Shown piece after piece: positions 1-11,394 of a DNA stretch of 11,394 nucleotides. Below the pieces are notes generated by a model that did not search any database, was not told the DNA's origin, and saw nothing but the letters and a program-made list of their open reading frames with translations. The translations under genes were made by a program, and so were the position numbers. The DNA is from a virus. Lineage: Duplodnaviria; Heunggongvirae; Uroviricota; Caudoviricetes. Location: the IMG/VR virus record IMGVR_UViG_2687453449_000005, positions 1 through 11,394 of that record. One strand, 5' to 3'. Within the stretch, counting starts at the first letter, position 1. Each line of letters starts with the position of its first letter.

Positions 1-90
1 TCACTCTGCCAGATGGCGCAATGCCATCTGGTATCACTTAAAGGTATTAAAAACAACTTTTTGTCTTTTTACCTTCCCGTTTCGCTCAAA
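1..90. other. Host chromosomal flank of the lambda attB site (B' arm side of attR)
   Basis: Reverse complement of 60-97 reads ...CAAATTAGTATAAAAAAGC preceded by GAGCGAAACGGGAAGGTAAAAAGACAAAAAG, which matches the E. coli attB/attR B' arm as I recall it (CTTGAGCGAAACGGGAAGG...). Recall-based; not verifiable here. Confidence 0.7.
9..31. repeat. Inverted repeat hairpin CCAGATGGC-GCAAT-GCCATCTGG in host flank
   Basis: Perfect 9-bp arms with a 5-nt loop seen directly. No adjacent T-run on either strand, so a terminator role is not supported; function unknown. Confidence 0.4.
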
Positions 91-105
91 TTAGTATAAA
101 AAAGC
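91..105. other. attR core: 15-bp lambda common core (TTAGTATAAAAAAGC = reverse complement of GCTTTTTTATACTAA)
   Basis: Exact 15-bp core string, flanked on one side by host-like sequence and on the other by lambda P-arm-like sequence. Confidence 0.85.
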
Positions 106-250
106 TGAACGAGAAACGTAAAATGATATAAATATCAATATATTAAATTAGATTTTGCATAAAAAACAGACTACAAAATACTGTAAAACACAACATATGC
201 AGTCACTATGAATCAACTACTTAGATGATATTAGTGACCTGTAACAGAGC
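106..250. promoter_or_regulatory. Lambda attP P arm (Int arm-type / IHF / Xis / Fis binding region), here part of attR
   Basis: TGAACGAGAAACGTAAAATGATATAAATATCAATATATTAAATTAGATTTTGCATAAAAAACAGACTAC...CAGTCACTATGAATCAACTACTTAGATG.TATTAGTGACCTGTAACAG matches the lambda P arm as recalled, in reverse-complement orientation. Confidence 0.8.
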
Positions 251-292
251 ATTAGCGCAAGGTGATTTTTTGTCCTCTTGCGCTAATTTTTT
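251..292 (+). terminator. sib / tI-like hairpin with T-run (lambda int retroregulation and terminator element)
   Basis: ATTAGCGCAAGG ... CCTCTTGCGCTAAT inverted repeat followed by TTTTTT, about 150-190 bp from the core on the P-arm side, where lambda sib/tI lies. Confidence 0.65.
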
Positions 293-783
293 GTCAACTC
301 ACTGGGTTAGTTGAATTTACAACCATGCTCAGTATCTCGATAAGCGCAGGGAGATGATGCAGTGGTGGGCGGACTGGCTTGATGAAAGTGTGCTGTAATC
401 CTCATATCCAACCTAAGAGATATGCACAATTTTGTGAATAAGATATTGAGAATTAGCAAAAGTTTTATTTTGCGTATCATCAATTCAGAATACAAAGTCA
501 CATGCTAATGTTCTGCATTGGTATCTTTTGCTTATCCATGTCTACATTATCGCCAAAATAATAGGTTTTGTCTATCAATTATTTGAATTACTTCCATGAA
601 ATTATAACGCACTTGTAATTTTTGATTATTTTTACCTCTCAAGTGTTTTGTTTCTTCTATCTCTTTGTATTTTTAGCGAAAGTATGCCATATTGCATTCT
701 AATATAACGTGGCGTTGTTTCTGTTTAATGATTTAAATAGTTCAACATAATATTTGCTAACAAATTATATCCAAGCAAATCAT

Positions 784-1929
784 ATGATATTATCATTACA
801 ATATATTAGAGGAATAGCATCATTACTTGTTGTTTTATTCCACTTCAGATTCTTGCTAAATGAGCACTACTCTCAGAAAGATTTGGGTGACCTATTATTT
901 GGGAATGGGCTGTCTGGAGTTGATATATTCTTCATATTAAGTGGATTTATCATCGTATACTCAACAAGAAAGAAGGAAGTTAATGATACTTTCTCATTCT
1001 CAATTAGAAGAATATTTAGAATATACCCATTACTAATCACATGCTGTTGCATGTATTACATAATAAACACTCAATTTCTAACCTATGCTACAGTTGAAAA
1101 CTTTAGAACCTTACTTATTTCCATCATTCCATTAAATATAAACTGGAATGAAGGCGCTCCATTCTTTGCCTATAATCTTTTGTACCCGGCCTGGACGATA
1201 ACATATGAAATTGGTTTCTATGTTTTTTTCGGGGTATCAATGTCTATTTCGCATAAATACAGAACAATTATCTGTTCTGTTTTTATAATCATGGTGGTCT
1301 CATTTACACAATACTATGTAAATGGAAATATATCATTTTCAGGTGATGTTAGTGCAGGGTTATTTACAGATAACTGGTTATTAGGATATACAAATGTTAT
1401 TACATCTCCAATGATGTATGAATTCGTTATTGGGATGTTTCTTTCTGAAATATTTACAAACATCAACGAAAGCAAAAGTATTAAAAGGATACTTTCAAAG
1501 TATTCGCTTCAAATACTATGGATTTCATGTGGTATATCCATAATATTATTCATTATCCAGCGACCTTATGGGCATGGATTGAATGGATTTGGGACTATGG
1601 CGATGATACTTATTGCATCATCATTAGTATATGAATACTGCAATATAACACCCAAAATAAAAATATTTAATTTCCTTGGTGAAATATCATATTCTTTATA
1701 TCTAATTCACGCCGTGATACTTGCTTTGTTCTTCTATTATAAGGCAGACCTTGCTGAAATTGGCATAACTGGTGGATTTTCTGTGTTTTTTTCCTTGGTT
1801 ATTATCTCAATAACTGCATCATATCCAATATATATTCTCATTGAAAAGCCAATGATAAATATAGGTAAACGTTTAATTGACAAGAGAAATAAGAGCATTA
1901 ACAAAAAAGAAACCGAAATAACAGCGTGA
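784..1929 (+). CDS. Acyltransferase family 3 (AT3) integral membrane O-acyltransferase, Oac/OafA-like; candidate surface-polysaccharide O-acetylase
   Basis: Track ORF 754..1929 starts at TTG; first ATG is 784 (MILSLQYIRGIASLLVVLFHF). AT3 hallmarks: N-terminal R...H in TM1 (YIRGIASLLVVLFH), GxxGVDIFFILSGF, and RRIFRIYP motif. Highly hydrophobic and AT-rich. Confidence 0.8.
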   Translation: MILSLQYIRGIASLLVVLFHFRFLLNEHYSQKDLGDLLFGNGLSGVDIFFILSGFIIVYSTRKKEVNDTFSFSIRRIFRIYPLLITCCCMYYIINTQFLTYATVENFRTLLISIIPLNINWNEGAPFFAYNLLYPAWTITYEIGFYVFFGVSMSISHKYRTIICSVFIIMVVSFTQYYVNGNISFSGDVSAGLFTDNWLLGYTNVITSPMMYEFVIGMFLSEIFTNINESKSIKRILSKYSLQILWISCGISIILFIIQRPYGHGLNGFGTMAMILIASSLVYEYCNITPKIKIFNFLGEISYSLYLIHAVILALFFYYKADLAEIGITGGFSVFFSLVIISITASYPIYILIEKPMINIGKRLIDKRNKSINKKETEITA

Positions 1930-1942
1930 TAATGACAAAGTT

Positions 1943-1964
1943 AGTGCCGGGATACCCCGGCACT
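1943..1964. terminator. Bidirectional intrinsic terminator candidate between convergent genes
   Basis: AGTGCCGGG-ATAC-CCCGGCACT perfect 9-bp stem, followed by ATTTAATCTATTT on + and a T-containing tract on -. Sits between the stop at 1929 and the - strand stop at 1967. Confidence 0.5.
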
Positions 1965-1966
1965 AT

Positions 1967-3304
1967 TTAATCTATTTCGTAAGTGACAGTGATTATCACT
2001 TCTGCATTATTACCCAAAACATTTTGATATATATTCATATTACCTGATAATGTAGTTGCTCCAGTAAGAGTTATATAACTACTATTTGCATCAACCCTTG
2101 GAAGTAAAGCGGTAACTGCTGTTGTTAAATTATTATAGTAGCCTGTACTTCCAACATATGCAGCTTTATTGCTTGATACATATGGTAACCCTCCAATTCT
2201 GAAACCATCTCCTGACCCAATTAAAGTTATACCAAGGTGACATGTTGCCGTTATGATATTGCCACTCCTGACATAATTTCCTTTCTGCTGATAATATGTG
2301 GCATTACCACCTACAGTCGGAATCCAAACTCCAGTTTCTATATCACCACATGACCAGTCTTCTGCTGTTGTTAGTTTTCCAGTAACAATAAATTTACTTC
2401 CACCACCAGAATTATAAGGAACAAAAATTGGATTTATTCTTGCATAAGTGTTACCGGTCTGCTCATTAAGATCATTTCTATCAATAAGAACTTGACCATT
2501 TTCGAAGTTTGAAATCTGGCAGTCTGTTACACTCCAGTCTCTTAACTTCACATCAGCATCCATGACACCAATAAGCTTACCAGCATTACCAATTTTTTCT
2601 TTATGCATATTTACATACACATTTCTTACCGTAACAGACTGAGGGAACAGATAATTAGCAGGATTAGTTTTATCACTTAAAACAGATATTACCCAAGGTC
2701 TGTATTGAGTACTTACTTCACAATAAAATCCATCAATAAGCGTTCCAGATGCCGCTGGCCCAAGTAGTATTCCACCTGTAGAGTGATGCGCACTACCTCC
2801 AATTACTCTCCCCTTAACGCAGTTAATATAGGCAAAATATCCTAAATCTTGATTGTCATAGGCTGACATAGCACAGTCTCTAACTGTTACTCGAGAATTT
2901 CCTCCGTCATAAGCTGAGCCATCAGTTTTCTTACCAACTATTGATATAAAGTTACCAATAGCAACTCGACTATAAAAAGTTTTTTTATAACACCCCTCAA
3001 TTAAAATATCCCAGTTTTCAAACTGAGCATATATATCATAAGAGCTGGCATTCCCATAATCTATGAAATCACAATATCTTATTTTCGGCGTATAAACGGC
3101 ACTTTTTATCTTTATACCACCTAATGCTCTCTCCCCACCTGTGAATCTAATGCCAGTAACGGTGTAATCGCCTTGATAGAAATTATCTGCGGTAGGATTA
3201 TTTTCGTCAGAATCATCACCCAATATAATAGCAAATTCACTCCCTGAATAATTAATTGTCGCCCCCTTATTTGAATATATAGTTACAGGTCTTATAAACT
3301 CCAA
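1967..3304 (-). CDS. Tailspike/tail-fibre-like receptor-binding protein, putative right-handed beta-helix glycanase domain; probably 5'-truncated remnant
   Basis: 445-aa ORF rich in G/N/S/T/Y/V with repeated short beta-strand-like segments (e.g. VTVRDCAMSAYDNQDLGYFAYINCVKGRVIGGSAHHSTGGILLG), typical of pectate-lyase-fold tailspikes. The ORF begins at TTG directly after an in-frame TGA; first in-frame ATG is far inside; no head-binding N-terminal domain. Confidence 0.5.
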   Translation of the reverse strand: MEFIRPVTIYSNKGATINYSGSEFAIILGDDSDENNPTADNFYQGDYTVTGIRFTGGERALGGIKIKSAVYTPKIRYCDFIDYGNASSYDIYAQFENWDILIEGCYKKTFYSRVAIGNFISIVGKKTDGSAYDGGNSRVTVRDCAMSAYDNQDLGYFAYINCVKGRVIGGSAHHSTGGILLGPAASGTLIDGFYCEVSTQYRPWVISVLSDKTNPANYLFPQSVTVRNVYVNMHKEKIGNAGKLIGVMDADVKLRDWSVTDCQISNFENGQVLIDRNDLNEQTGNTYARINPIFVPYNSGGGSKFIVTGKLTTAEDWSCGDIETGVWIPTVGGNATYYQQKGNYVRSGNIITATCHLGITLIGSGDGFRIGGLPYVSSNKAAYVGSTGYYNNLTTAVTALLPRVDANSSYITLTGATTLSGNMNIYQNVLGNNAEVIITVTYEID

Positions 3305-3623
3305 AGAATTACTTATTAGATACTCTCCATAAGGAAAAAAATCTCAACTGGTGGTGAGTACTTTGGTCTGGAGTTTACGTAATTCATAATATTGATTACA
3401 CCAACATCATAGATAATCGCCACCTTCTGGCGAGGAGCTCCTGATGCAATTAATCGCCAGGCCTACGCCCATTATTCAGGGGTAAATTTTGGACGGAGCC
3501 CCCAATTCCATCCTCAATTCTCCCTCGCACTGAGGAGTAGTAAGTGCAATTATTTAAAAAATCGCAAACAGAATATTATCATTTATTCTTGCATTCTGTT
3601 AATTAAAACCACACATAAAAACG

Positions 3624-3653
3624 TTGATACTTGATAAGTAAGTAGAGTATTAT
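3624..3653 (+). promoter_or_regulatory. Sigma70-like promoter candidate for the downstream acyltransferase
   Basis: TTGATA (3624-3629), 18-bp spacer, TATTAT (3648-3653), about 40 bp upstream of the ATG at 3697. AT-rich context, so false positives are likely. Confidence 0.3.
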
Positions 3654-3696
3654 TAATGGTTTTAATAACGAACCTTTTAATCATGAGAAGCCTCAA

Positions 3697-4722
3697 ATGA
3701 CTAGTACCAATAACATAACAAGAAAAAAAATGGATGGAGTAACAATCTTAAGATTTATAGCTGCTTTTTATGTGTTTATTTTTCACATTAACATGAGAGT
3801 CCCCGTTAATTTTGGAGAGCTTATTAATAAAACCATTAGCAATGGCGTCATTGGCATGAGTATTTTCTTCATGCTTTCTGGTTTTGTTTTGACTTATAAT
3901 TACTATGGTTCCTTGTCAAACAATTACTTCAGGAAGCGAATAGCAAGAATATTTCCAGCCTATTTATTTTGTGGGCTTTTAACCCTCCCATTTTTGTTAT
4001 CCAGCGATGCAAGCTTTTTAAAAATGATTGCAAGCATATTCTTGTTTGTTACTGGAATGCAATCATGGATTTATCAGACCTTCGATTTTTGGAATTTTAG
4101 CGGTACCTGGTCAATATCAGTGGAATTGTTTTTTTATGCCCTGTTTCCATTTTTGATAAAAAACATCAACAAAAACAATGTAATTTATGTTTTACTTTTT
4201 TCATATTTATCTTCAGCATTATTAATCCCATTATCTGATATAATTCAGGGACCTGTAGTTTGGTCCGTATATTACGCAACTCCAATATACAGGTTACCAG
4301 AATTTGTGGTGGGCGTCTGTATCGCAATACTTTTTTTAAATGGCTATCGTGTTAACCATTATACATGGCTATTAAGCATTTTATTATTTCTGTATGCTAC
4401 CACCCAGCAAAACAATAACTCCATGGGGGTGAACTATCTCACAATTCCTGCGATATCAATTATGTTATTGCACCTGGCAAAAATCAACATCAAAAACAAT
4501 ATTGCAAACAGAGCGATCATTTACTTTGGAGATATAAGTTATTCGTTTTATTTGATGCAATTACCTATATTATATTACCTGGATCATAATAAAAACTCAT
4601 TTATTCTTAACTATGGTCTTTTTAGCTGGCTTGTACTTTTTGTTATTAATACTGCAATGGCATCATTATCTTATCACTTTCTGGAGAAGAACGATAAAAT
4701 CAGAAAAATAATTACATCCTGA
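3697..4722 (+). CDS. Acyltransferase family 3 (AT3) integral membrane O-acyltransferase, second divergent copy
   Basis: ATG start; ILRFIAAFYVFIFH (R...H), GVIGMSIFFMLSGF, and RKRIARIFPAY motifs. Shares family motifs with the 784..1929 protein but is otherwise clearly divergent. Alternative start at the internal M (MDGVTIL...). Confidence 0.8.
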   Translation: MTSTNNITRKKMDGVTILRFIAAFYVFIFHINMRVPVNFGELINKTISNGVIGMSIFFMLSGFVLTYNYYGSLSNNYFRKRIARIFPAYLFCGLLTLPFLLSSDASFLKMIASIFLFVTGMQSWIYQTFDFWNFSGTWSISVELFFYALFPFLIKNINKNNVIYVLLFSYLSSALLIPLSDIIQGPVVWSVYYATPIYRLPEFVVGVCIAILFLNGYRVNHYTWLLSILLFLYATTQQNNNSMGVNYLTIPAISIMLLHLAKINIKNNIANRAIIYFGDISYSFYLMQLPILYYLDHNKNSFILNYGLFSWLVLFVINTAMASLSYHFLEKNDKIRKIITS

Positions 4723-4763: not shown

Positions 4764-5159
4764 TCAACGTATTATCTCTGGCCTTTCTGGCCAGGTTATT
4801 TCTGGAATTAAGGACAAATCCACTGACATTAAATTATTAACATATTCCTTCCATAACAAAAGATTGTTCTTGTTATTTTCACTTATAATACCGAGTAACA
4901 AATCTGACTGCCAGTTCATAATTAAACCATTAGCACTATCCAGCAGACACTGTCTTTCATTCTCTGCCTCACGAAGTAATTCATCATGTGTTTTTGGCGG
5001 CTGCGTAGGTGACGAAAGCTTTCCCTTATCATAGAACCAACCAATTCTTACATTATCGGATACAGGTATAACTAACGCATTAGTTGGTTGCCAGGCACTC
5101 TCACCATCCCATACCGCAATATTGGTAACAACACCATTTTCTATAACGGCATAGTTCAT
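4764..5159 (-). CDS. Tail fibre assembly protein (Tfa-like chaperone)
   Basis: Track ORF starts at TTG (5174); first ATG at 5157-5159 gives MNYAVIENGVVTNIAVWDG... (131 aa), with Tfa-like LGIIS motif and C-terminal W/P-rich tail. The ATG overlaps the upstream stop in a TGATG arrangement (translational coupling). Confidence 0.7.
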   Translation of the reverse strand: MNYAVIENGVVTNIAVWDGESAWQPTNALVIPVSDNVRIGWFYDKGKLSSPTQPPKTHDELLREAENERQCLLDSANGLIMNWQSDLLLGIISENNKNNLLLWKEYVNNLMSVDLSLIPEITWPERPEIIR

Positions 5160-5644
5160 CACGCATACTCCCAAATGATTGCAATACCAGCCATTCCGCT
5201 ACCTCCGGCACGCTGCTGCGTCGCTCCACCGTAGACACAGGCACCACCGCCTCCACCACCATGGCCATTAGCATTAATACCTTCGCCTACAATGGCTTGT
5301 GACCCAGCCCCCGCACCAAGGATTGAATCGCCGCCAGGCCCCCCCATCGCCAGACTGCCGGAATACCGAACGCCTGGTGAGCTATAACCGCTTCCAGACC
5401 CGATAATATTTGCACCTGTAAATCCCGGCTCAGTATATGCTCCATACGGACCAACAACCCCTGGAGCAGTTCCTTCAGCAAGAACATTCCCACCAAGGCC
5501 ACCTTTGGCAATTATGGTATTGCCGAAAGAGGTTGTTCCCCCGGGAGCACCAACCGACGCACTTGCACCAGTGCCACCATATCCGATTGTCACAGTAGTT
5601 ACGGTTGGATTATCCACGCGAGCTTTAACATACTCCCCGGACAT
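5159..5644 (-). CDS. Tail fibre protein, glycine-rich C-terminal (receptor-binding) domain; likely remnant of a longer side-tail-fibre gene
   Basis: 161 aa, extremely Gly/Ala/Ser/Thr-rich (GGxG repeats, GHGGGGGG), as in C-terminal domains of enterobacterial prophage side tail fibres; immediately followed by tfa. ATG start is preceded by a G-run with no properly spaced SD. Confidence 0.6.
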   Translation of the reverse strand: MSGEYVKARVDNPTVTTVTIGYGGTGASASVGAPGGTTSFGNTIIAKGGLGGNVLAEGTAPGVVGPYGAYTEPGFTGANIIGSGSGYSSPGVRYSGSLAMGGPGGDSILGAGAGSQAIVGEGINANGHGGGGGGACVYGGATQQRAGGSGMAGIAIIWEYA

Positions 5645-5666
5645 CCCCCCGCCACCACAAGCAGCA

Positions 5667-6428
5667 TTATTGGGATAGCTTCTCCACGCTGTAGGTACGC
5701 AAATGCGCTTTGTAGACCAGCTGCGCCGCGCCGACAGTAGCGCTGTCGAACGCGGTAAGACGATCCCAGATACGCTCTACAACCGACATTCCCCATTCGT
5801 TCTCGGTCATCTTCTGCTGAAATGGCAGCGTGACGCCATCAAAGCGAATCAGTCGACTGTGATGAATGCGCCAGGCAGGAATTCCCGTTGCTGTGGTCAC
5901 CACATCGTAAAACTCAGGTTTACCCAGGTCCGGCCCCATATCTTTAATGCGGCGGGTCAGTACCGGGTCAATCATCCAGCGGTCGAGCGGGAGAATCCCC
6001 TTAAACTTGCCCTTACCGATGGTTTCGGGTCGCAGCGGGGTCATTGGTGCCTGCCCCTCAATCATGATGAAACCCACCGCGCCGCCGTAGAGGCGCGACC
6101 ATTTCAGCACGTCATTCAGCGCATCCCAGATTTGCAACTCATCCAGTTGTGATTCGAGAATGCCACGATCTTTTGCATCAATTTCCGAAGTGATGCGAAT
6201 GCCTTTGCGGGTCATATCATCTGGGATAGCATCGACCGCTTCGCCGATGATCCAGGACGAACGATAGGACCATTCCACCAGCATGCGGTTACGACTGGTG
6301 AAATTAGCCCGGTAGGTGGATGCTGAGTGCTGGTTAGGTGTCTGCATCCCTACGCGGGCAATAAAATTCTCATAACCATCAGCTGTGGCCTGCGCAGTTC
6401 GCCGCAGGGCTTGTTTGTTTCGTGCCAT
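5667..6428 (-). pseudogene. Probable portal protein, N-terminal fragment (253 aa), truncated by deletion
   Basis: Start ATG overlaps the terminase large subunit stop (TGATG), the usual terL-portal coupling. At 253 aa it is far shorter than any portal and is followed after 22 bp by a tail-fibre C-terminal ORF. Portal assignment is by position and general character only. Confidence 0.45.
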
Positions 6429-8050
6429 CAGGCCTGTCTCCCTAGCAGCTCCCAGATGTTCAGGGCTGAATTCATTGGGGCATAGTTGATCATCACCGAG
6501 TCGGCAAGGTTTGGCGATCGGGTTCCATCAGGCTGTTTATCAATAACGATTTTTCCCACACCATTAATGGAATAGGTCGGCTGCGAAAGCTCGATGATGA
6601 GTTTATCTTTGAGTGCCATGCTACTGCTGATTGAGATGATTTCGTCCGGGTTGTAAGCCATACCTTCAACCACGGCGCGCCAGGTATTCTGAAAAAGTTT
6701 ACGTAACCGCCACCAGCTCTGGGCTTTGGCGTTAGCGAAGAAGTCCTTGTTCAGACGTGCGGCTTGCCCGTTGTCCCCGCGAACAGCTTCATCATCTGGA
6801 TCAAATACCGCGCCACTACCTCGAAACGGTGTGGCGAGTATTGACGGTCGACGCGCAACGTTACGCAGTTCGTTGATAGCGCGTGCATCGCCGCGAACGC
6901 CAGCGCCCAGCCCGTCCTCGTCAAAGCGAAACTCTTCGAGGTTGTCCTGTTCGCAAAAACCGAAAACCTTCTCGACGGACTGATAAATGTCACTGCCCAC
7001 ACCGGACCATTCCCGCACATTTTCCAGGAGGAAGCCATGACGGGTGGAAAATGCATTTTTGTCCCTGCCTTCGTCGGCGACATCCATCGCGCCAAGTCGT
7101 TTGCCTGTTGGCTGGATACCCAGTTTGATATGTGCATCAACGGCAGCCTGTACCCATTCGGATGGAATCAGGACGCCTTCCGCTGATGCGCTGTAGTTCA
7201 GATCAAGTTCCTGTGCCACCACCACCGGATTATCGATTTTCTCGCATTCCCTGCGATACCACTCTTCATCCTTGCGAGGATCATCCCGCCAGTGGAATGT
7301 GAATACCGGTATCTTCCCGCCATGACGCTTCTGAGCGAACGGGTTCGCCATGCCGTTAACTGAACTCAGGTCAATACGGCAACGCGTCGTTTGTGACAAC
7401 GCCGCATCAATCAGCAGAGGACGCTGAAGGAATGCAGCCTCATCAACCAGATAAAGCGTGGTACGGTCACCACGACCAATATTATCGCCAGCCTCGCCTT
7501 TGATAACGGCACCAGTTTCAGGAAACTCAACACGCATATATGGCGCGTGCTTCTTCTCGCTCCACGAACCGCGAAACTCTACAGGTAGTGTTTCCACGAA
7601 CTTGCGCGCCTTCCAGAACAATGCTTTCGGGTCACCGGTGCTGTCGACGTATTCCTCTTTACGGGAGCCGAAACCGATAACCATTTCTTTGTTGAAGAGA
7701 CAAAGCGAGCAGGCCAGTCCGATCGCGGTCCAACTGAGCCCCATTTCACGGGATTTTTCGGTAATACCATTCTCCCTATTGCCCCAGCGTTCCATAATCC
7801 AGTGGATCCACTCCTCCTGCTTAGGGAAGAGTAAAAACGGAATGGTCACCGGCAGGCCATAATCAATATTACGCGGGTCCGTTGTCATGCCCCAGTCGAT
7901 GATGAACTGAGCCGGGTTGGTTCGGTAAAACTGTTTTAGTGCTGGCAATATTTCAGGGTTCTGGCGAATGCGCTGTAAGCGTTCCATCCGCCATTCAAAA
8001 ACCATCTGGTAATCAGGATTTTTAAAATCGAAGGGGAATGGTAACGGCAT
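6428..8050 (-). CDS. Phage terminase large subunit (ATPase + nuclease)
   Basis: 540 aa; Walker-B-like [10 protein letters not shown]-terminal nuclease-domain motifs ([22 protein letters not shown]) of the kind seen in P22/Sf6-type terminases; ATG start 2 nt after the terS stop. Confidence 0.85.
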
Positions 8051-8052
8051 AC

Positions 8053-8559
8053 TTAGCCCATCATTTTTCTATACGCCTCTGCAGCCTGCTCCGGCGTTAA
8101 GTTGGTAATTTCTGTTCTGACTGGTCCTCCATCAGCGCCAGTCACTTCATTTTTGACGTTGTCTTTAAACGCCTGAACAGAAACATGACGCCCAAGCAAC
8201 TCAAGGTTTTTAACCTTATCAGGCCATTTGATTTTCTTCAGAAGTGCGGCGCTATCTGCGGATACCATCTCCATGACATCCATTCCTGATAGCGTTGTGC
8301 GCCATACCTTAGGCCAGTCTTTAATGGGTTTTAGATCACCGTTTTGCAGGAGAATGTCGAGCACATCCATCTGGTCGATTTCAATAAGGCGATTAAGTAC
8401 ATATTCTGCATTAATACCAACAAGATCATTGCGTTGCGCTTTCAGTTCAGCGATTCTGAATTGTATGTCAGGTTTTGACAGGTTTTCGGATGCGGTACGG
8501 TTAGCTGTCTTTGCGCTGTACCCCGCCCGAATATCGGCAATGAATAACAATCCTCGCAC
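8053..8559 (-). pseudogene. Terminase small subunit, N-terminally truncated at a recombination junction
   Basis: ...IRAGYSAKTANRTASENLSKPDI matches the conserved terS block, but the preceding residues do not resemble a terS N-terminus; the only start is GTG, an in-frame TAA lies 5 codons upstream, and no SD is present. Confidence 0.6.
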
Positions 8560-8581
8560 TCGCGGGGATTTCTTTTATCTG

Positions 8582-8607
8582 AACTCGCTACGGCGAGTTT
8601 TGTTTTA
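8582..8607 (+). terminator. Intrinsic terminator candidate (AACTCGC-TACG-GCGAGTT then TTGTTTT)
   Basis: 7-bp stem plus T-rich tract seen directly; lies in the junction/intergenic zone upstream of the 55-aa ORF. Confidence 0.3.
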
Positions 8608-8619
8608 TGGAGATGATAA

Positions 8620-8787
8620 ATGCACTTCCGAGTCACAGGTGAATGGAATGGAGAACCATTCAACAGAGTTATCGAAGCGGAGAACATCAACGACTGCTAC
8701 GACCACTGGATGATATGGGCGCAGATAGCACATGCAGACATAACCAATATTCGAATTGAAGAACTGAAAGAACACCAATCCGCCTGA
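8620..8787 (+). CDS. Small hypothetical protein (55 aa), lambda orf55-like, upstream of xis
   Basis: ATG at 8620 with GGAG 8 nt upstream; open frame to TGA at 8785-8787 (MHFRVTGEWNGEPFNRVIEAENINDCYDHWMIWAQIAHADITNIRIEELKEHQSA). Same position and size as the 55-codon ORF next to xis in lambda. Absent from the ORF track, presumably by length cutoff. Confidence 0.6.
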   Translation: MHFRVTGEWNGEPFNRVIEAENINDCYDHWMIWAQIAHADITNIRIEELKEHQSA

Positions 8788-8799
8788 TGGCGGTTTTTT
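8780..8799 (+). terminator. Small hairpin + T6 (CCGCC-TGAT-GGCGG-TTTTTT) directly after the 55-aa ORF
   Basis: 5-bp GC stem, 4-nt loop containing the ORF stop codon, and six T; seen directly. Not a named lambda terminator that I can recall. Confidence 0.3.
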
Positions 8800-8800
8800 C

Positions 8801-8840
8801 TTGCGTGTAATTGCGGAGACTTTGCGATGTACTTGACACT
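8801..8840 (+). promoter_or_regulatory. pI-type cII-dependent int promoter (TTGC-N6-TTGC box)
   Basis: TTGCGTGTAATTGC at 8801-8814 is a cII recognition repeat just upstream of and overlapping the xis start, as for lambda pI, whose transcript starts inside xis. Confidence 0.5.
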
Positions 8841-9045
8841 TCAGGAGTGGAACGCTCGCCAGCGACGCCCAAGAAGCCTTGAAACAGTTCGTCGATGGGT
8901 GCGCGAATGCAGGATATTCCCTCCTCCGGTTAAGGATGGAAGAGAATATCTGTTCCACGAATCAGCGGTAAAGGTTGACTTAAATCGACCAGTAACAGGT
9001 AGCCTTTTGAAGAGGATCAGAAATGGGAAGAAGGCGAAGTCATGA
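8827..9045 (+). CDS. xis: Excisionase Xis (lambda Xis, 72 aa)
   Basis: MYLTLQEWNARQRRPRSLETVRRWVRECRIFPPPVKDGREYLFHESAVKVDLNRPVTGSLLKRIRNGKKAKS matches lambda Xis as recalled; GGAG SD 9 nt upstream; 23-nt overlap with int as in lambda. Confidence 0.95.
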   Translation: MYLTLQEWNARQRRPRSLETVRRWVRECRIFPPPVKDGREYLFHESAVKVDLNRPVTGSLLKRIRNGKKAKS

Positions 9046-10093
9046 GCGCCGGGATTTACCCCCTAACCTTTATATAAGAAACAATGGATATTACTGCTAC
9101 AGGGACCCAAGGACGGGTAAAGAGTTTGGATTAGGCAGAGACAGGCGAATCGCAATCACTGAAGCCATACAGGCCAACATTGAGTTATTTTCAGGACACA
9201 AACACAAGCCTCTGACAGCGAGAATCAACAGTGATAATTCCGTTACGCTACATTCATGGCTTGATCGCTACGAAAAAATCCTGGCCAGCAGAGGAATCAA
9301 GCAGAAGACACTCATAAATTACATGAGCAAAATTAAAGCAATAAGGAGGGGGCTGCCTGATGCTCCACTTGAAGACATCACCACAAAAGAAATTGCGGCA
9401 ATGCTCAATGGATACATAGACGAGGGCAAGGCGGCGTCAGCCAAGTTAATCAGATCAACACTGAGCGATGCATTCCGAGAGGCAATAGCTGAAGGCCATA
9501 TAACAACAAACCCTGTCGCTGCCACTCGCGCAGCAAAATCAGAGGTAAGGAGATCAAGACTTACGGCTGACGAATACCTGAAAATTTATCAAGCAGCAGA
9601 ATCATCACCATGTTGGCTCAGACTTGCAATGGAACTGGCTGTTGTTACCGGGCAACGAGTTGGTGATTTATGCGAAATGAAGTGGTCTGATATCGTAGAT
9701 GGATATCTTTATGTCGAGCAAAGCAAAACAGGCGTAAAAATTGCCATCCCAACAACATTGCATGTTGATGCTCTCGGGATATCAATGAAGGAAACACTTG
9801 ATAAATGCAAAGAGATTCTTGGCGGAGAAACCATAATTGCATCTACTCGTCGTGAACCGCTTTCATCCGGCACAGTATCAAGGTATTTTATGCGCGCACG
9901 AAAAGCATCAGGTCTTTCCTTCGAAGGGGATCCGCCTACCTTTCACGAGTTGCGCAGTTTGTCTGCAAGACTCTATGAGAAGCAGATAAGCGATAAGTTT
10001 GCTCAACATCTTCTCGGGCATAAGTCGGACACCATGGCATCACAGTATCGTGATGACAGAGGCAGGGAGTGGGACAAAATTGAAATCAAATAA
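9023..10093 (+). CDS. int: Tyrosine integrase (lambda Int, 356 aa)
   Basis: MGRRRSHERRDLPPNLYIRNNGYYCYRDPRTGKEFGLGRDRRIAITEAIQ...SQYRDDRGREWDKIEIK matches lambda Int essentially throughout; catalytic residues at lambda numbering R212, K235, H308, R311, H333, Y342 are all present. Confidence 0.97.
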   Translation: MGRRRSHERRDLPPNLYIRNNGYYCYRDPRTGKEFGLGRDRRIAITEAIQANIELFSGHKHKPLTARINSDNSVTLHSWLDRYEKILASRGIKQKTLINYMSKIKAIRRGLPDAPLEDITTKEIAAMLNGYIDEGKAASAKLIRSTLSDAFREAIAEGHITTNPVAATRAAKSEVRRSRLTADEYLKIYQAAESSPCWLRLAMELAVVTGQRVGDLCEMKWSDIVDGYLYVEQSKTGVKIAIPTTLHVDALGISMKETLDKCKEILGGETIIASTRREPLSSGTVSRYFMRARKASGLSFEGDPPTFHELRSLSARLYEKQISDKFAQHLLGHKSDTMASQYRDDRGREWDKIEIK

Positions 10094-10172
10094 TGATTTT
10101 ATTTTGACTGATAGTGACCTGTTCGTTGCAACAAATTGATAAGCAATGCTTTTTTATAATGCCAACTTAGTA
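10094..10172. other. attL remnant: lambda P' arm plus first 6 bp of the core (TTAGTA), interrupted by IS10
   Basis: AATGATTTTATTTTGACTGATAGTGACCTGTTCGTTGCAACAAATTGATAAGCAATGCTTTTTTATAATGCCAAC + TTAGTA matches the lambda P' arm up to the core, then breaks into an IS10 end. Confidence 0.85.
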
Positions 10173-11394
10173 CTGAGAGATCCCCTCATAATTTCCCCAA
10201 AGCGTAACCATGTGTGAATAGATTTTGAGTAAGCAGGGTTGCAGCCACGAGTGAGTCTTCCCTTGTTATTGTGTAGCCAGAATGCCGCAAAACTTCCATG
10301 CCTAAGCGAACTGTTGAGAGTACGTTTCGATTTCTGACTGTGTTAGCCTGGAAGTGCTTGTCCCAACCTTGTTTCTGAGCATGAACGCCCGCAAGCCAAC
10401 ATGTTAGTTGAAGCATCAGGGCGATTAGCAGCATGATATCAAAACGCTCTGAGCTGCTCGTTCGGCTATGGCGTAGGCCTAGTCCGTAGGCAGGACTTTT
10501 CAAGTCTCGGAAGGTTTCTTCAATCTGCATTCGCTTCGAATAGATATTAACAAGTTGTTTGGGTGTTCGAATTTCAACAGGTAAGTTAGTTGCTAGAATC
10601 CATGGCTCCTTTGCCGACGCTGAGTAGATTTTAGGTGACGGGTGGTGACAATGAGTCCGTGTCGAGCGCTGATTTTTTCGGCCTTTAGAGCGAGATTTAT
10701 ACAATAGAATTTGGCATGAGATTGGATTGCTTTTAGTCAGCCTCTTATAGCCTAAAGTCTTTGAGTGACTAGATGACATATCATGTAAGTTGCTGATAGG
10801 TTTCCAGTTTTCCGCTCCTAGGTCTGCATATTGTACTTTTCCTCTTACTCGACTTAACCAGTACCAACCCAGCTTCTCAACGGATTTATACCATGGCACT
10901 TTAAAGCCAGCATCACTGACAATGAGCGGTGTGGTGTTACTCGGTAGAATGCTCGCAAGGTCGGCTAGAAATTGGTCATGAGCTTTCTTTGAACATTGCT
11001 CTGAAAGCGGGAACGCTTTCTCATAAAGAGTAACAGAACGACCGTGTAGTGCGACTGAAGCTCGCAATACCATAAGTCGTTTTTGCTCACGGATATCAGA
11101 CCAGTCAACAAGTACAATGGGCATCGTATTGCCCGAACAGATAAAGCTAGCATGCCAACGGTATACAGCGAGTCGCTCTTTGTGGAGGTGACGATTACCT
11201 AACAATCGGTCGATTCGTTTGATGTTATGTTTTGTTCTCGCTTTGGTTGGCAGGTTACGGCCAAGTTCGGTAAGAGTGAGAGTTTTACAGTCAAGTAATG
11301 CGTGGCAAGCCAACGTTAAGCTGTTGAGTCGTTTTAAGTGTAATTCGGGGCAGAATTGGTAAAGAGAGTCGTGTAAAATATCGAGTTCGCACAT
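10173..11394 (-). mobile_element. IS10 (IS4 family), partial in window: inside end at 10173, element continues about 107 bp beyond the window
   Basis: Terminal CTGAGAGATCCCCTCATAATTTCCCCAAAGCGTAACC matches the IS10 inside end as recalled. Transposase stop lies 14-16 bp inside this end and the 402-codon ORF starts at the last window base, fitting the 1329-bp IS10 layout. Confidence 0.93.
10186..11394 (-). CDS. IS10 transposase (DDE, IS4 family), complete 402 aa
   Basis: MCELDILHDSLYQFCPELHLKRLNSLTLACHALLDCKTLTLTELGRN... with DAGF and YSKRMQIEETFRDLK (YREK signature) motifs; matches Tn10/IS10 transposase as recalled. Confidence 0.95.
   Translation of the reverse strand: MCELDILHDSLYQFCPELHLKRLNSLTLACHALLDCKTLTLTELGRNLPTKARTKHNIKRIDRLLGNRHLHKERLAVYRWHASFICSGNTMPIVLVDWSDIREQKRLMVLRASVALHGRSVTLYEKAFPLSEQCSKKAHDQFLADLASILPSNTTPLIVSDAGFKVPWYKSVEKLGWYWLSRVRGKVQYADLGAENWKPISNLHDMSSSHSKTLGYKRLTKSNPISCQILLYKSRSKGRKNQRSTRTHCHHPSPKIYSASAKEPWILATNLPVEIRTPKQLVNIYSKRMQIEETFRDLKSPAYGLGLRHSRTSSSERFDIMLLIALMLQLTCWLAGVHAQKQGWDKHFQANTVRNRNVLSTVRLGMEVLRHSGYTITREDSLVAATLLTQNLFTHGYALGKL

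Follow-up and report, generated by a model that had tools for sequence, protein, structure and literature searches.

A 5'-truncated P22-type tailspike gene, very probably a passenger pseudogene, in the defective lambda-B prophage of Escherichia coli B

Results

A tailspike remnant in the lambda-B prophage

The 445-codon open reading frame (ORF) found on the minus strand of the 11,394-nt stretch of DNA analyzed here (the window) is very probably a non-functional passenger pseudogene, 5'-truncated and frameshifted, derived from a P22-type (Lederbergvirus-like) tailspike gene of which it retains the 3' 69%. The window corresponds to the defective lambda-B prophage located at att-lambda in E. coli B (REL606/BL21), a defective prophage known to lie between ybhB/bio and ybhC (PMC4395058). 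In window coordinates, the relevant features are:

91..105, minus strand: lambda att core GCTTTTTTATACTAA, the prophage attR, adjoining ybhB/bio (core search and gene context)
315..398, plus strand: 3' fragment of an intS-type integrase gene, about 28 codons, annotated as a pseudogene by PGAP; right end of the presumably captured P22-like segment
784..1929, plus strand: intact acyltransferase of the Acyl_transf_3 family, WP_000603805.1 (Pfam PF01757, E=1e-30)
1942..1965: perfect hairpin with a 10-bp stem, a terminator for both directions where tailspike remnant and acyltransferase converge
1967..3304, minus strand: 445-codon ORF, equivalent to codons 205-649 of a P22-type tailspike; RefSeq hypothetical protein WP_000394418.1
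3305..3410, minus strand: upstream stretch of the same tailspike gene (codons ~169-204), no longer in frame, as traced by DNA alignment and by tblastn, using St11Ph5 gp63.1 and the E. coli tailspike P0002 as queries
3335..3341, minus strand: T7 homopolymer, site of a -1 frameshift; T8 in the full-length gene and in an earlier form of the remnant
3398..3410, minus strand: recombination junction, 13-nt microhomology ATGATGTTGGTGT present both in the 3' region of pin and in the tailspike gene
3398..3508, minus strand: fragment of a Pin/Gin/Hin-family serine DNA invertase gene with two in-frame stop codons, coincident with a GC-richer patch
3509..3696: AT-rich spacer between the pin fragment and a divergent acyltransferase gene (3697..4722), which it accompanies in other prophages

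No second att core was found within one mismatch on the int side of the window, because an IS10 occupies that place. Other decayed genes lie nearby: besides the pin fragment, a portal gene and a tail-fibre gene are both truncated.

Homology with full-length tailspikes

At the DNA level, the ORF matches codons 205-649 of the gene for a 649-aa tailspike (WP_338384024.1, encoded at locus L007) with 98.4% identity, and the ORF product is 82% identical to the 648-aa E. coli tailspike WP_060618122.1 (P0002), which carries both PF09008 and PF12708, and 56% identical over 442 residues to residues 192-633 of the tailspike gp63.1 of phage St11Ph5. Homology to bona fide tailspikes thus covers the receptor-binding and C-terminal parts, the ORF containing most of the beta-helix receptor-binding domain and the C-terminal beta-sandwich. 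The full-length relatives (648-649 aa) consist of a head-binding domain (residues 4-114), a linker, a beta-helix domain from near residue 150 and a C-terminal beta-sandwich, and their beta-helix domain is the receptor-binding, glycan-cleaving part of the protein. In the L007 protein, annotated as a "phage head-binding domain-containing protein", PF09008 spans residues 4-114 and PF12708 residues 154-249. Pfam detected neither family in the ORF, nor in the 485-aa variant described below, and the N-terminal particle-binding domain PF09008 is therefore lacking. Indeed, the ORF alone gave no match in Pfam or PHROG. The recognizable motifs all sit in the deleted N-terminal third. The original prediction of a tailspike-like protein without head-binding domain was correct, and it is homology alone that reveals it.

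The deletion extends beyond the head-binding domain. In the AlphaFold2 (AF2) model of P0002, the beta-helix domain begins near residue 150, with a helix at 170-181 and strands at 190-201, so that residues 147-204, absent from the ORF, include this helix and the strands with which the beta-helix begins. Starting at residue 205, the ORF encodes neither a complete beta-helix domain with its N-terminal cap nor the PF12708 region. Structure prediction of the ORF alone, which had been proposed as a check, nevertheless gives a confident beta-helix, and none of the 52 residues that are invariant in the alignment beyond residue 205 has been lost.

Start of the ORF and the upstream frameshift

A 445-aa ORF opening with TTG is present at 1967..3304 as first described, with its earliest in-frame ATG far downstream, at codon 146 (window 2869). 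The TTG does not directly follow an in-frame TGA, as had been stated, but is the first start-type codon after a TGA at 3346-3344, 13 codons upstream. No Shine-Dalgarno sequence precedes it (duplex dG -1.0 kcal/mol), and for a GTG further upstream, at 3423, an AGGAG motif ends 13 nt before it and is not properly spaced; the ORF has no start codon with a ribosome-binding site of its own.

Tailspike homology runs 106 nt upstream of the TTG. Positions 3305-3340 are in the frame of the ORF, behind the TGA, and 3334-3408 read in a second frame. Homology continuing through the frameshift implies that the ORF boundary is accidental, and the truncated sequence is thus flanked, in a disrupted frame, by further tailspike sequence up to a cut at codon ~169; it is on this point that the degraded-remnant option of the original prediction holds. 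The frameshift lies in the T-run, whose length is T7 in the window and at locus L009 and T8 in the full-length gene of L007 and in the remnant of Br_167_kylling (L008). Two records give 1431-nt matches instead of 1430, T8 being present in at least two remnant-bearing genomes. With T8, the frame is open from GTG 3423 over 485 codons, and PGAP calls this chimera as a coding sequence (WP_416853879.1). It had been suggested that a frameshifted N-terminal domain might be recoverable by translating all minus-strand frames. Tailspike homology does occur in the second frame, but over ~35 codons only and with no head-binding domain; tblastn detected no resemblance to that domain in any frame upstream of 3410. 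The N-terminal 165 residues of St11Ph5 gp63.1 gave only noise against positions 1900-4000; the N terminus of the donor was P22-type rather than G7C-type and is in any case deleted.

A pin fragment and the recombination junction

The 392 bp upstream of the ORF (3305-3696) contain no ORF of at least 50 aa on either strand, as had been noted. The GC-richer patch reported at about 3400-3540 is real and closely placed: GC content is 0.505 in 3398-3508 versus 0.31 in 3305-3397 and 0.30 in 3509-3696, and 0.415-0.43 versus 0.27-0.32 in 200-nt windows. Of the two origins proposed for it, that of another gene stands, and that of a former 5' portion of the ORF does not. The patch is a piece of a Pin-family invertase gene, corresponding to PinE residues 138-172 (the C-terminal DNA-binding part; 28/35 residues identical), with 85% DNA identity to K-12 pinE nt 404-515. 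About 1,500 E. coli genomes match the window only through this piece, inside pinE. The fragment has neither the catalytic resolvase domain nor the intact helix-turn-helix of an invertase, and its last 12 Pin residues are replaced by tailspike sequence; PGAP annotates 3316-3501 as a pseudogene with an internal stop.

The junction was mapped by a four-way alignment of the window, the pin fragment of E. coli IAI39, K-12 pinE and the full-length tailspike gene. IAI39 carries the same block of tfa, acyltransferase, spacer and pin fragment, at 98.7% identity, without the tailspike remnant. There, the pin fragment continues as far as its own termination codon and already contains both of the internal stops seen in the window. 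The spacer shows promoter-like matches on both strands, among them a sigma-70-like match upstream of the ORF and on its strand (3602-3573), all of them consensus matches only.

The donor segment and the recipient prophage

Window positions 313-3410 are 98.7% identical to positions 6987-10086 of L007, a P22-like argW prophage. The matching stretch takes in codons 169-649 of the 649-aa tailspike and the acyltransferase convergent to it, and its identity ends, at window 313, within intS, of which it covers the final 86 nt (L007 10001-10086). Another locus (L004) matches 315-435, and Lambda/434-type phages match 87-401. The acyltransferase, probably an O-antigen O-acetyltransferase, is the usual downstream neighbor of the tailspike in donor-type phages, with an equal arrangement in L007, and five other genomes with the remnant carry it at 100% DNA identity.

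P22-type neighbor genes are confined to donor-type loci, whereas the host prophage is of the baseplate/tail-fibre type: its fuller relatives carry baseplate J, DUF2612, tail-fibre and tail-fibre-assembly genes. The host prophage is not a phage with a P22-type tail hub (gp4/gp10/gp26) able to accept a tailspike.

Substitution pattern

The sequence is found in 50 of 5,426 complete E. coli genomes, and the protein cluster of the remnant (P0001) counts 200 member sequences. Between the window and the full-length gene there are 19 synonymous and 3 nonsynonymous differences (dN/dS about 0.05), versus 1 synonymous and 4 nonsynonymous among six remnant copies (ratio about 1.1), a contrast that reaches p = 0.009 in a Fisher test with only five polymorphisms in six copies. 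Two of these changes, Y156C and H174Y, fall on positions conserved in at least 90% of homologues, and the polymorphism among remnant copies, consisting of these five changes only, looks neutral. The copies differ by at most 0.3% from one another and by 1.6% from the full-length gene, and the 1338-nt frame is without internal stop in all six. Judged by the divergence among remnant copies, the event is recent, which accounts for the ORF being still open without any need for selection.

Discussion

The alignments suggest that a baseplate/tail-fibre prophage received, at its tail-fibre end, a 3.1-kb piece of a P22-like phage, bounded by tailspike codon ~169 on one side and by the final 86 nt of intS on the other, with the convergent acyltransferase in between. 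The left junction would have formed at the 13-nt microhomology, within an already decayed pin invertase gene, and the right one beside attP, in ~90 bp that the 3' end of intS has in common with lambda-like phages. The useful part was likely the acyltransferase, a "moron" for serotype conversion, and the tailspike piece would be passenger DNA, so that the tailspike gene would never have been complete in the lambda-B prophage. The loss of one T from the T8 run would then have broken the residual frame, a step displayed by natural intermediates, and the 445-codon ORF left behind would begin, by chance, with the first TTG beyond the TGA that this created. Decay in situ of a tailspike native to the prophage was considered and is less likely: the relatives are of the baseplate/tail-fibre type, and in IAI39 the pin fragment still has its 3' end, with no tailspike present.

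A different reading, raised in the original prediction, is that of a domesticated free enzyme or lectin, whose 445-aa product, initiated at TTG or a near-cognate codon, would bind or cleave O-antigen independently of a virion, possibly with the flanking acetyltransferases. We consider it improbable. An N-terminally shortened P22 tailspike (TSP delta-N, residues 109-666) folds, trimerises and cleaves O-antigen in vitro, and loss of the head-binding domain alone is thus not fatal to activity; however, this precedent keeps the whole beta-helix and benefits from engineered expression signals, whereas the ORF starts about 50 residues into the domain, without its cap helix and first rungs and without translation signals. 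The sigma-70-like match makes transcription possible, but a TTG start with no Shine-Dalgarno sequence, passed by homology through a frameshift, argues against such a product. The protein would have to reach the cell surface, and no signal peptide or export route was seen when the N terminus MEFIRPVTIYSNKG was read by eye. The confident predicted fold and the full retention of invariant residues favor a functional protein, as does a frame intact in 50 genomes of varied sources; yet the open frame is accounted for by recency, and the polymorphism is neutral-like, including at Y156 and H174. The acyltransferase is the ordinary neighbor of the tailspike in the donor phage rather than a newly recruited partner. 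Finally, E. coli B makes no O-antigen. A narrower version, in which the truncated tailspike, whether initiated at TTG or at a near-cognate codon or, where the run is T8, made as part of the 485-aa chimera, acts as a virion-free O-antigen glycanase or lectin in O-antigen-positive carriers (e.g. O7:H4 strains such as MIN14), seems to us highly improbable; were it true, the protein could trim or sense polysaccharide modified by the two flanking acyltransferases.

Expression of the chimera in B strains, at a low level and through slippage of RNA polymerase or ribosome on T7 that would restore the 485-aa Pin'-'tailspike product, is more improbable still. The location of the frameshift in a homopolymer and the open T8 frame called by PGAP are in its favor, but seven T's are short for efficient transcriptional slippage, GTG 3423 lacks a suitable Shine-Dalgarno sequence, and the chimera would start inside the decayed Pin DNA-binding domain, without the FGxKGDG start of the beta-helix domain; the T8 form itself shows no sign of being functional. 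As for a sequencing or assembly error, by which stop and frameshift would be artefacts and the real gene intact with its N-terminal domain, homopolymer length errors are common in some chemistries, but the same T7 and pin junction recur, with identical sequence, across dozens of genomes sequenced independently of one another, REL606 and BL21 among them, and the junction does not depend on the T-run: even with T8 it cuts the gene at codon ~169. This explanation, which the original prediction had allowed for, can be regarded as ruled out.

The passenger pseudogene can be placed among known tailspikes. It resembles those of P22-like podoviruses (P22 gp9, Sf6 gp14, HK620) by its right-handed beta-helix and C-terminal beta-sandwich, both predicted, and shares with full-length E. 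coli prophage tailspikes the gene order of tailspike facing acyltransferase and intS (tailspike -> <- acyltransferase <- intS). It differs from them by the absence of residues 1-204 (PF09008, the linker and the beginning of the beta-helix with the FGxKGDG motif) and of a start codon context, and by its residence in a baseplate/tail-fibre prophage rather than a P22-like one. No sequence similarity was detectable between its beta-helix and those of P22, Sf6 and HK620, only the N-terminal part of the profile being matched. In St11Ph5, a virulent G7C-like, N4-related phage, the homologous receptor-binding domain is borne by a 191-residue G7C-type adaptor N terminus, whereas the window copy has no N terminus at all. 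This pair shows a receptor-binding module exchanged between unrelated phage types. A lyase activity has been predicted for gp63.1, and an O5 strain served as the isolation host of St11Ph5 (PMC6393563).

The significance of these results is mostly one of annotation and housekeeping, and they raise no new biological question. WP_000394418.1, a "hypothetical protein" of BL21, REL606 and relatives, the most widely used protein-production strains, can be re-labelled as a tailspike pseudogene, and the neighboring PGAP "hypothetical" pseudogene as the fusion of a pin invertase fragment with codons 169-204 of the tailspike. A full-text literature search for the accession WP_000394418 found no mention of it. 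The locus is furthermore a clean example of phage mosaicism, with donor, recipient and intermediate extant, one junction at a 13-nt microhomology and a later homopolymer frameshift, and it illustrates how a fragment of a structural gene may hitch-hike with a serotype-conversion moron.

Other cryptic prophage remnants of E. coli, such as the truncated tail-fibre and pin-associated genes of e14 or the pin fragment of the IAI39 ssrA prophage, are similar in having a 5'-truncated structural gene beside intact morons, a short-homology junction followed by a frameshift, and an automatic annotation as hypothetical protein or pseudogene. Unlike in these, the donor, recipient and intermediate of the lambda-B remnant are all identifiable among sequenced genomes, and the steps can therefore be dated relative to each other.

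The ORF as a remnant of a P22-type tailspike

On its own the 445-codon ORF, labelled 'hypothetical protein' in RefSeq (WP_000394418.1), matches no Pfam or PHROG family. Over 100% of its length it aligns, with 82% identity, with an E. coli 'phage tailspike protein' of 648 aa (WP_060618122.1) in which PF09008 (head binding) and PF12708 are present. A second alignment, with 56% identity, covers 99% of the ORF and residues 192-633 of gp63.1, the 635-aa tailspike of St11Ph5. The other homologues (n = 29) are nearly all 505-746 aa long, one being a 329-aa partial sequence, and thus extend beyond the ORF at the N-terminus. P22-like prophages encode the 648-aa protein, their gene order being ejection proteins, arc/mnt, tailspike, convergent acyltransferase and an integrase that adjoins argW/yfdC. 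The AF2 model of this protein contains a confident beta-helix (about 150-510) and a C-terminal beta-sandwich (520-648), the top Foldseek matches being the Sf6, P22, Det7 and HK620 tailspikes; this fold does not discriminate between a hydrolase and a lyase. The remnant shares its receptor-binding module with gp63.1 of the G7C-like phage St11Ph5, which was isolated on a host making O5-type O-polysaccharide and whose gp63.1 analogue is a lyase by prediction only (PMC6393563; PMC5764931).

One complete genome, E. coli 2018-05-5CC, holds a full-length counterpart, a 649-aa 'phage head-binding domain-containing protein' with PF09008 at 4-114 and PF12708 at 154-249, whose gene is 98.3% identical to window 1967-3396. 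Since residue n of the ORF corresponds to residue n+204 of this protein, the head-binding domain and the linker are absent from the ORF, as are some 50 residues of the beta-helix domain; among the lost elements are the FGxKGDG motif, helix 170-181 and the initial strands. The original prediction of a tailspike deprived of its N-terminus is thereby borne out: the ORF is what remains of a tailspike of the P22-type class, lacking four of the five defining features of a functional tailspike and showing the structural ones of a pseudogene.

In whole-region BLAST, the identity extends over 3.1 kb (window 313-3410 versus 6987-10086 of the 2018-05-5CC prophage region L007, 98.7%), from tailspike codon ~169 through the convergent 381-aa acyltransferase (acyltransferase-1) and into intS, of which it includes the final 86 nt. 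Between the remnant and this acyltransferase lies a GC-rich hairpin (1942-1965, perfect 10-bp stem), interpreted as a bidirectional terminator and kept in the donor-type prophage. The gp16-like lytic transglycosylase gene of L007 (2742-4460) is annotated as missing its C-terminus, so the donor-type tailspike copy also resides in a decaying prophage.

Reading frame and upstream sequence

The region comprises the following features.

1967-3304, minus strand: 445-codon ORF with TTG start (ORF call)
3305-3410, minus strand: further tailspike gene (protein-level homology in two frames)
3316-3501: RefSeq pseudogene ('internal stop; missing N-terminus')
3398-3508: GC-rich fragment of a Pin-family DNA invertase gene (DNA and protein identity to pinE/PinE)
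3509-3696: AT-rich DNA going with the divergent acyltransferase at 3697-4722 (comparison with IAI39)

TTG does open the ORF, as originally described, but the TGA said to adjoin it, the nearest in-frame stop, lies 13 codons upstream (3346-3344). The first in-frame ATG is indeed far downstream (codon 146, window 2869), and the 392 bp upstream (3305-3696) hold no ORF of at least 50 aa. A search of the minus-strand frames, the check suggested at the outset, recovers tailspike homology upstream of the TTG: behind the TGA, FPYGEYLISNS is encoded in the frame of the ORF, and D-V-G-V-INIMNYVNSRPKYSPPVEIFF in a second frame of 3305-3410. The frame changes at a run of seven T (T7, 3335-3341), which is T8 in the full-length gene and in the remnant copy of Br_167_kylling, for which PGAP accordingly calls an ORF of 485 aa starting at GTG 3423; two records match at 1431 nt rather than 1430 nt.

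The GC-richer patch (0.505 in 3398-3508, versus about 0.30-0.31 on both sides and 0.36 in the ORF), suspected of coming from another gene, proved to be a pin fragment, with 85% DNA identity to nt 404-515 of K-12 pinE and 28 of 35 residues identical to PinE 138-172, interrupted by two in-frame stops. The block of tfa, acyltransferase, spacer and pin fragment recurs with 98.7% identity in a baseplate-type prophage at ssrA in E. coli IAI39, where the fragment reaches its own stop codon, already contains the same two internal stops and is followed by no tailspike DNA at that locus. Acyltransferase-2 with its AT-rich flanks (window 3697-4722; IAI39 region L014, 6298-7323) is flanked by tfa and the pin fragment in the att-lambda prophage as well as in the ssrA prophage of IAI39. 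IAI39, which we take to be O7:K1, E. coli B, presumably of O7-type ancestry, and the carrier MIN14, labelled O7:H4, together hint that this enzyme modifies the O7 antigen.

Junctions and order of events

In a four-way alignment of the window, IAI39, K-12 pinE and the full-length tailspike, the window tracks pin as far as ATGATGTTGGTGT (3410-3398) and, from this same 13-mer onward, the tailspike; as both parents contain the 13-mer, this is a microhomology join. At the other end, identity to the P22-like segment stops within the 3' fragment of intS, at window 313. Homology to lambda/434-type phages covers window 87-401 (1501-1814 in phage 434, L015), which takes in the attP arm, the terminator region and a ~90-bp intS-like stretch, so that the right-hand crossover could be homologous. 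This stretch, which in the phages lies some 220-300 bp away from the attP core and shares homology with the 3' ends of the intS-type integrase genes found in P22-like argW prophages, is possibly a recurrent crossover point for swapping cargo beside attP.

Three steps are each documented by sequenced states that still exist. The pin gene was truncated and decayed beside acyltransferase-2 (as in IAI39); the segment 'tailspike/acyltransferase-1/'intS was then joined at the 13-mer (as in Br_167_kylling, which has T8 and, at ORF codon 182, the ancestral GGA); finally, one T was lost, T8 becoming T7 (REL606, BL21, the window and most other carriers). The acyltransferase would be the selectable cargo and the tailspike piece its passenger.

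Remnant or free enzyme

The window and the full-length gene differ by 19 synonymous and 3 nonsynonymous changes over 297 and 1038 sites (dN/dS about 0.05), and most of this divergence dates from the time when the two genes still made functional tailspikes. Six remnant copies differ among themselves by 1 synonymous and 4 nonsynonymous changes (S88I, Y156C, H174Y, A288T), a ratio of about 1.1 on small numbers, and this pattern departs from the former (Fisher p = 0.009); Y156 and H174 are conserved in at least 90% of 22 homologues, and acyltransferase-1 beside the remnant is 100% identical in the same genomes. The substitutions, few as they are, go in the direction that a pseudogene predicts.

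The truncation, the frameshift upstream of the TTG and the pin junction make it very probable that the ORF is a degraded remnant, one of the two readings initially proposed. The other, a free glycan-binding enzyme repurposed by the host, has a precedent in the P22 tailspike, which remains active in vitro when shortened at its N-terminus; that construct, however, still has its complete beta-helix, and its expression signals are engineered. Here no Shine-Dalgarno sequence precedes the TTG start (dG -1.0) and no well-spaced one precedes TTG codon 28, ATG codon 146 or GTG 3423, while the open frame requires no selection, since copies differ by at most 0.3% and few mutations have had time to occur. 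Domestication is unsupported and, in our view, very improbable. With a promoter-like match on the minus strand (3602-3573), the remnant could conceivably be transcribed. Genes for baseplate J, DUF2612, a tail fibre and tfa are present in relatives of the recipient prophage; even a complete P22-type tailspike would find no P22-type tail hub there. We regard the ORF as an ordinary prophage pseudogene whose history is unusually well resolved.

Host prophage

E. coli B strains (REL606, BL21, NEB Express and others) and several natural isolates carry window 1900-3800 with 100% identity. In REL606 it lies at the lambda attachment site, between ybhB/bioA and ybhC, and the att core GCTTTTTTATACTAA is found at window 91-105. 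This prophage is the defective 'lambda-B' of 12.1 kb, which is described as shared by the B lineage (PMC4395058).

Downstream of the lambda-type int, an IS10/ISVsa5 (IS4-family) element (10149-11394, starting at ~10173; 402-aa transposase at 10186-11394, minus strand) directly follows an att-like GCTTTTTTATAATGCCAACTTAGTA, where REL606 and BL21 have ybhC; none of the complete E. coli genomes in the collection combines this IS10 junction with the rest of the window. Around ~8560-8830, between the small terminase gene and xis, the window lacks ~2.0 kb of REL606 (a hypothetical gene, a lysC Rz1-like gene and DUF551, DUF4752 and ASCH genes), the BLAST match being in two pieces (3887 bp in REL606 versus 1873 bp in the window).

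The remainder of the prophage is much eroded: a truncated portal gene runs into the Gly-rich C-terminus of a tail fibre, after which come a tail-fibre-assembly gene and two Acyl_transf_3 genes. The portal gene matches Phage_portal_3 over profile positions 6-207 of 357 before being cut off, and abuts the tail-fibre ORF (5159-5644); this join (5159-6428) is a large internal deletion that removed head and tail genes. PGAP's label for the portal fragment, 'anti-CBASS protein Acb1 family', seems to be an artefact of naming.
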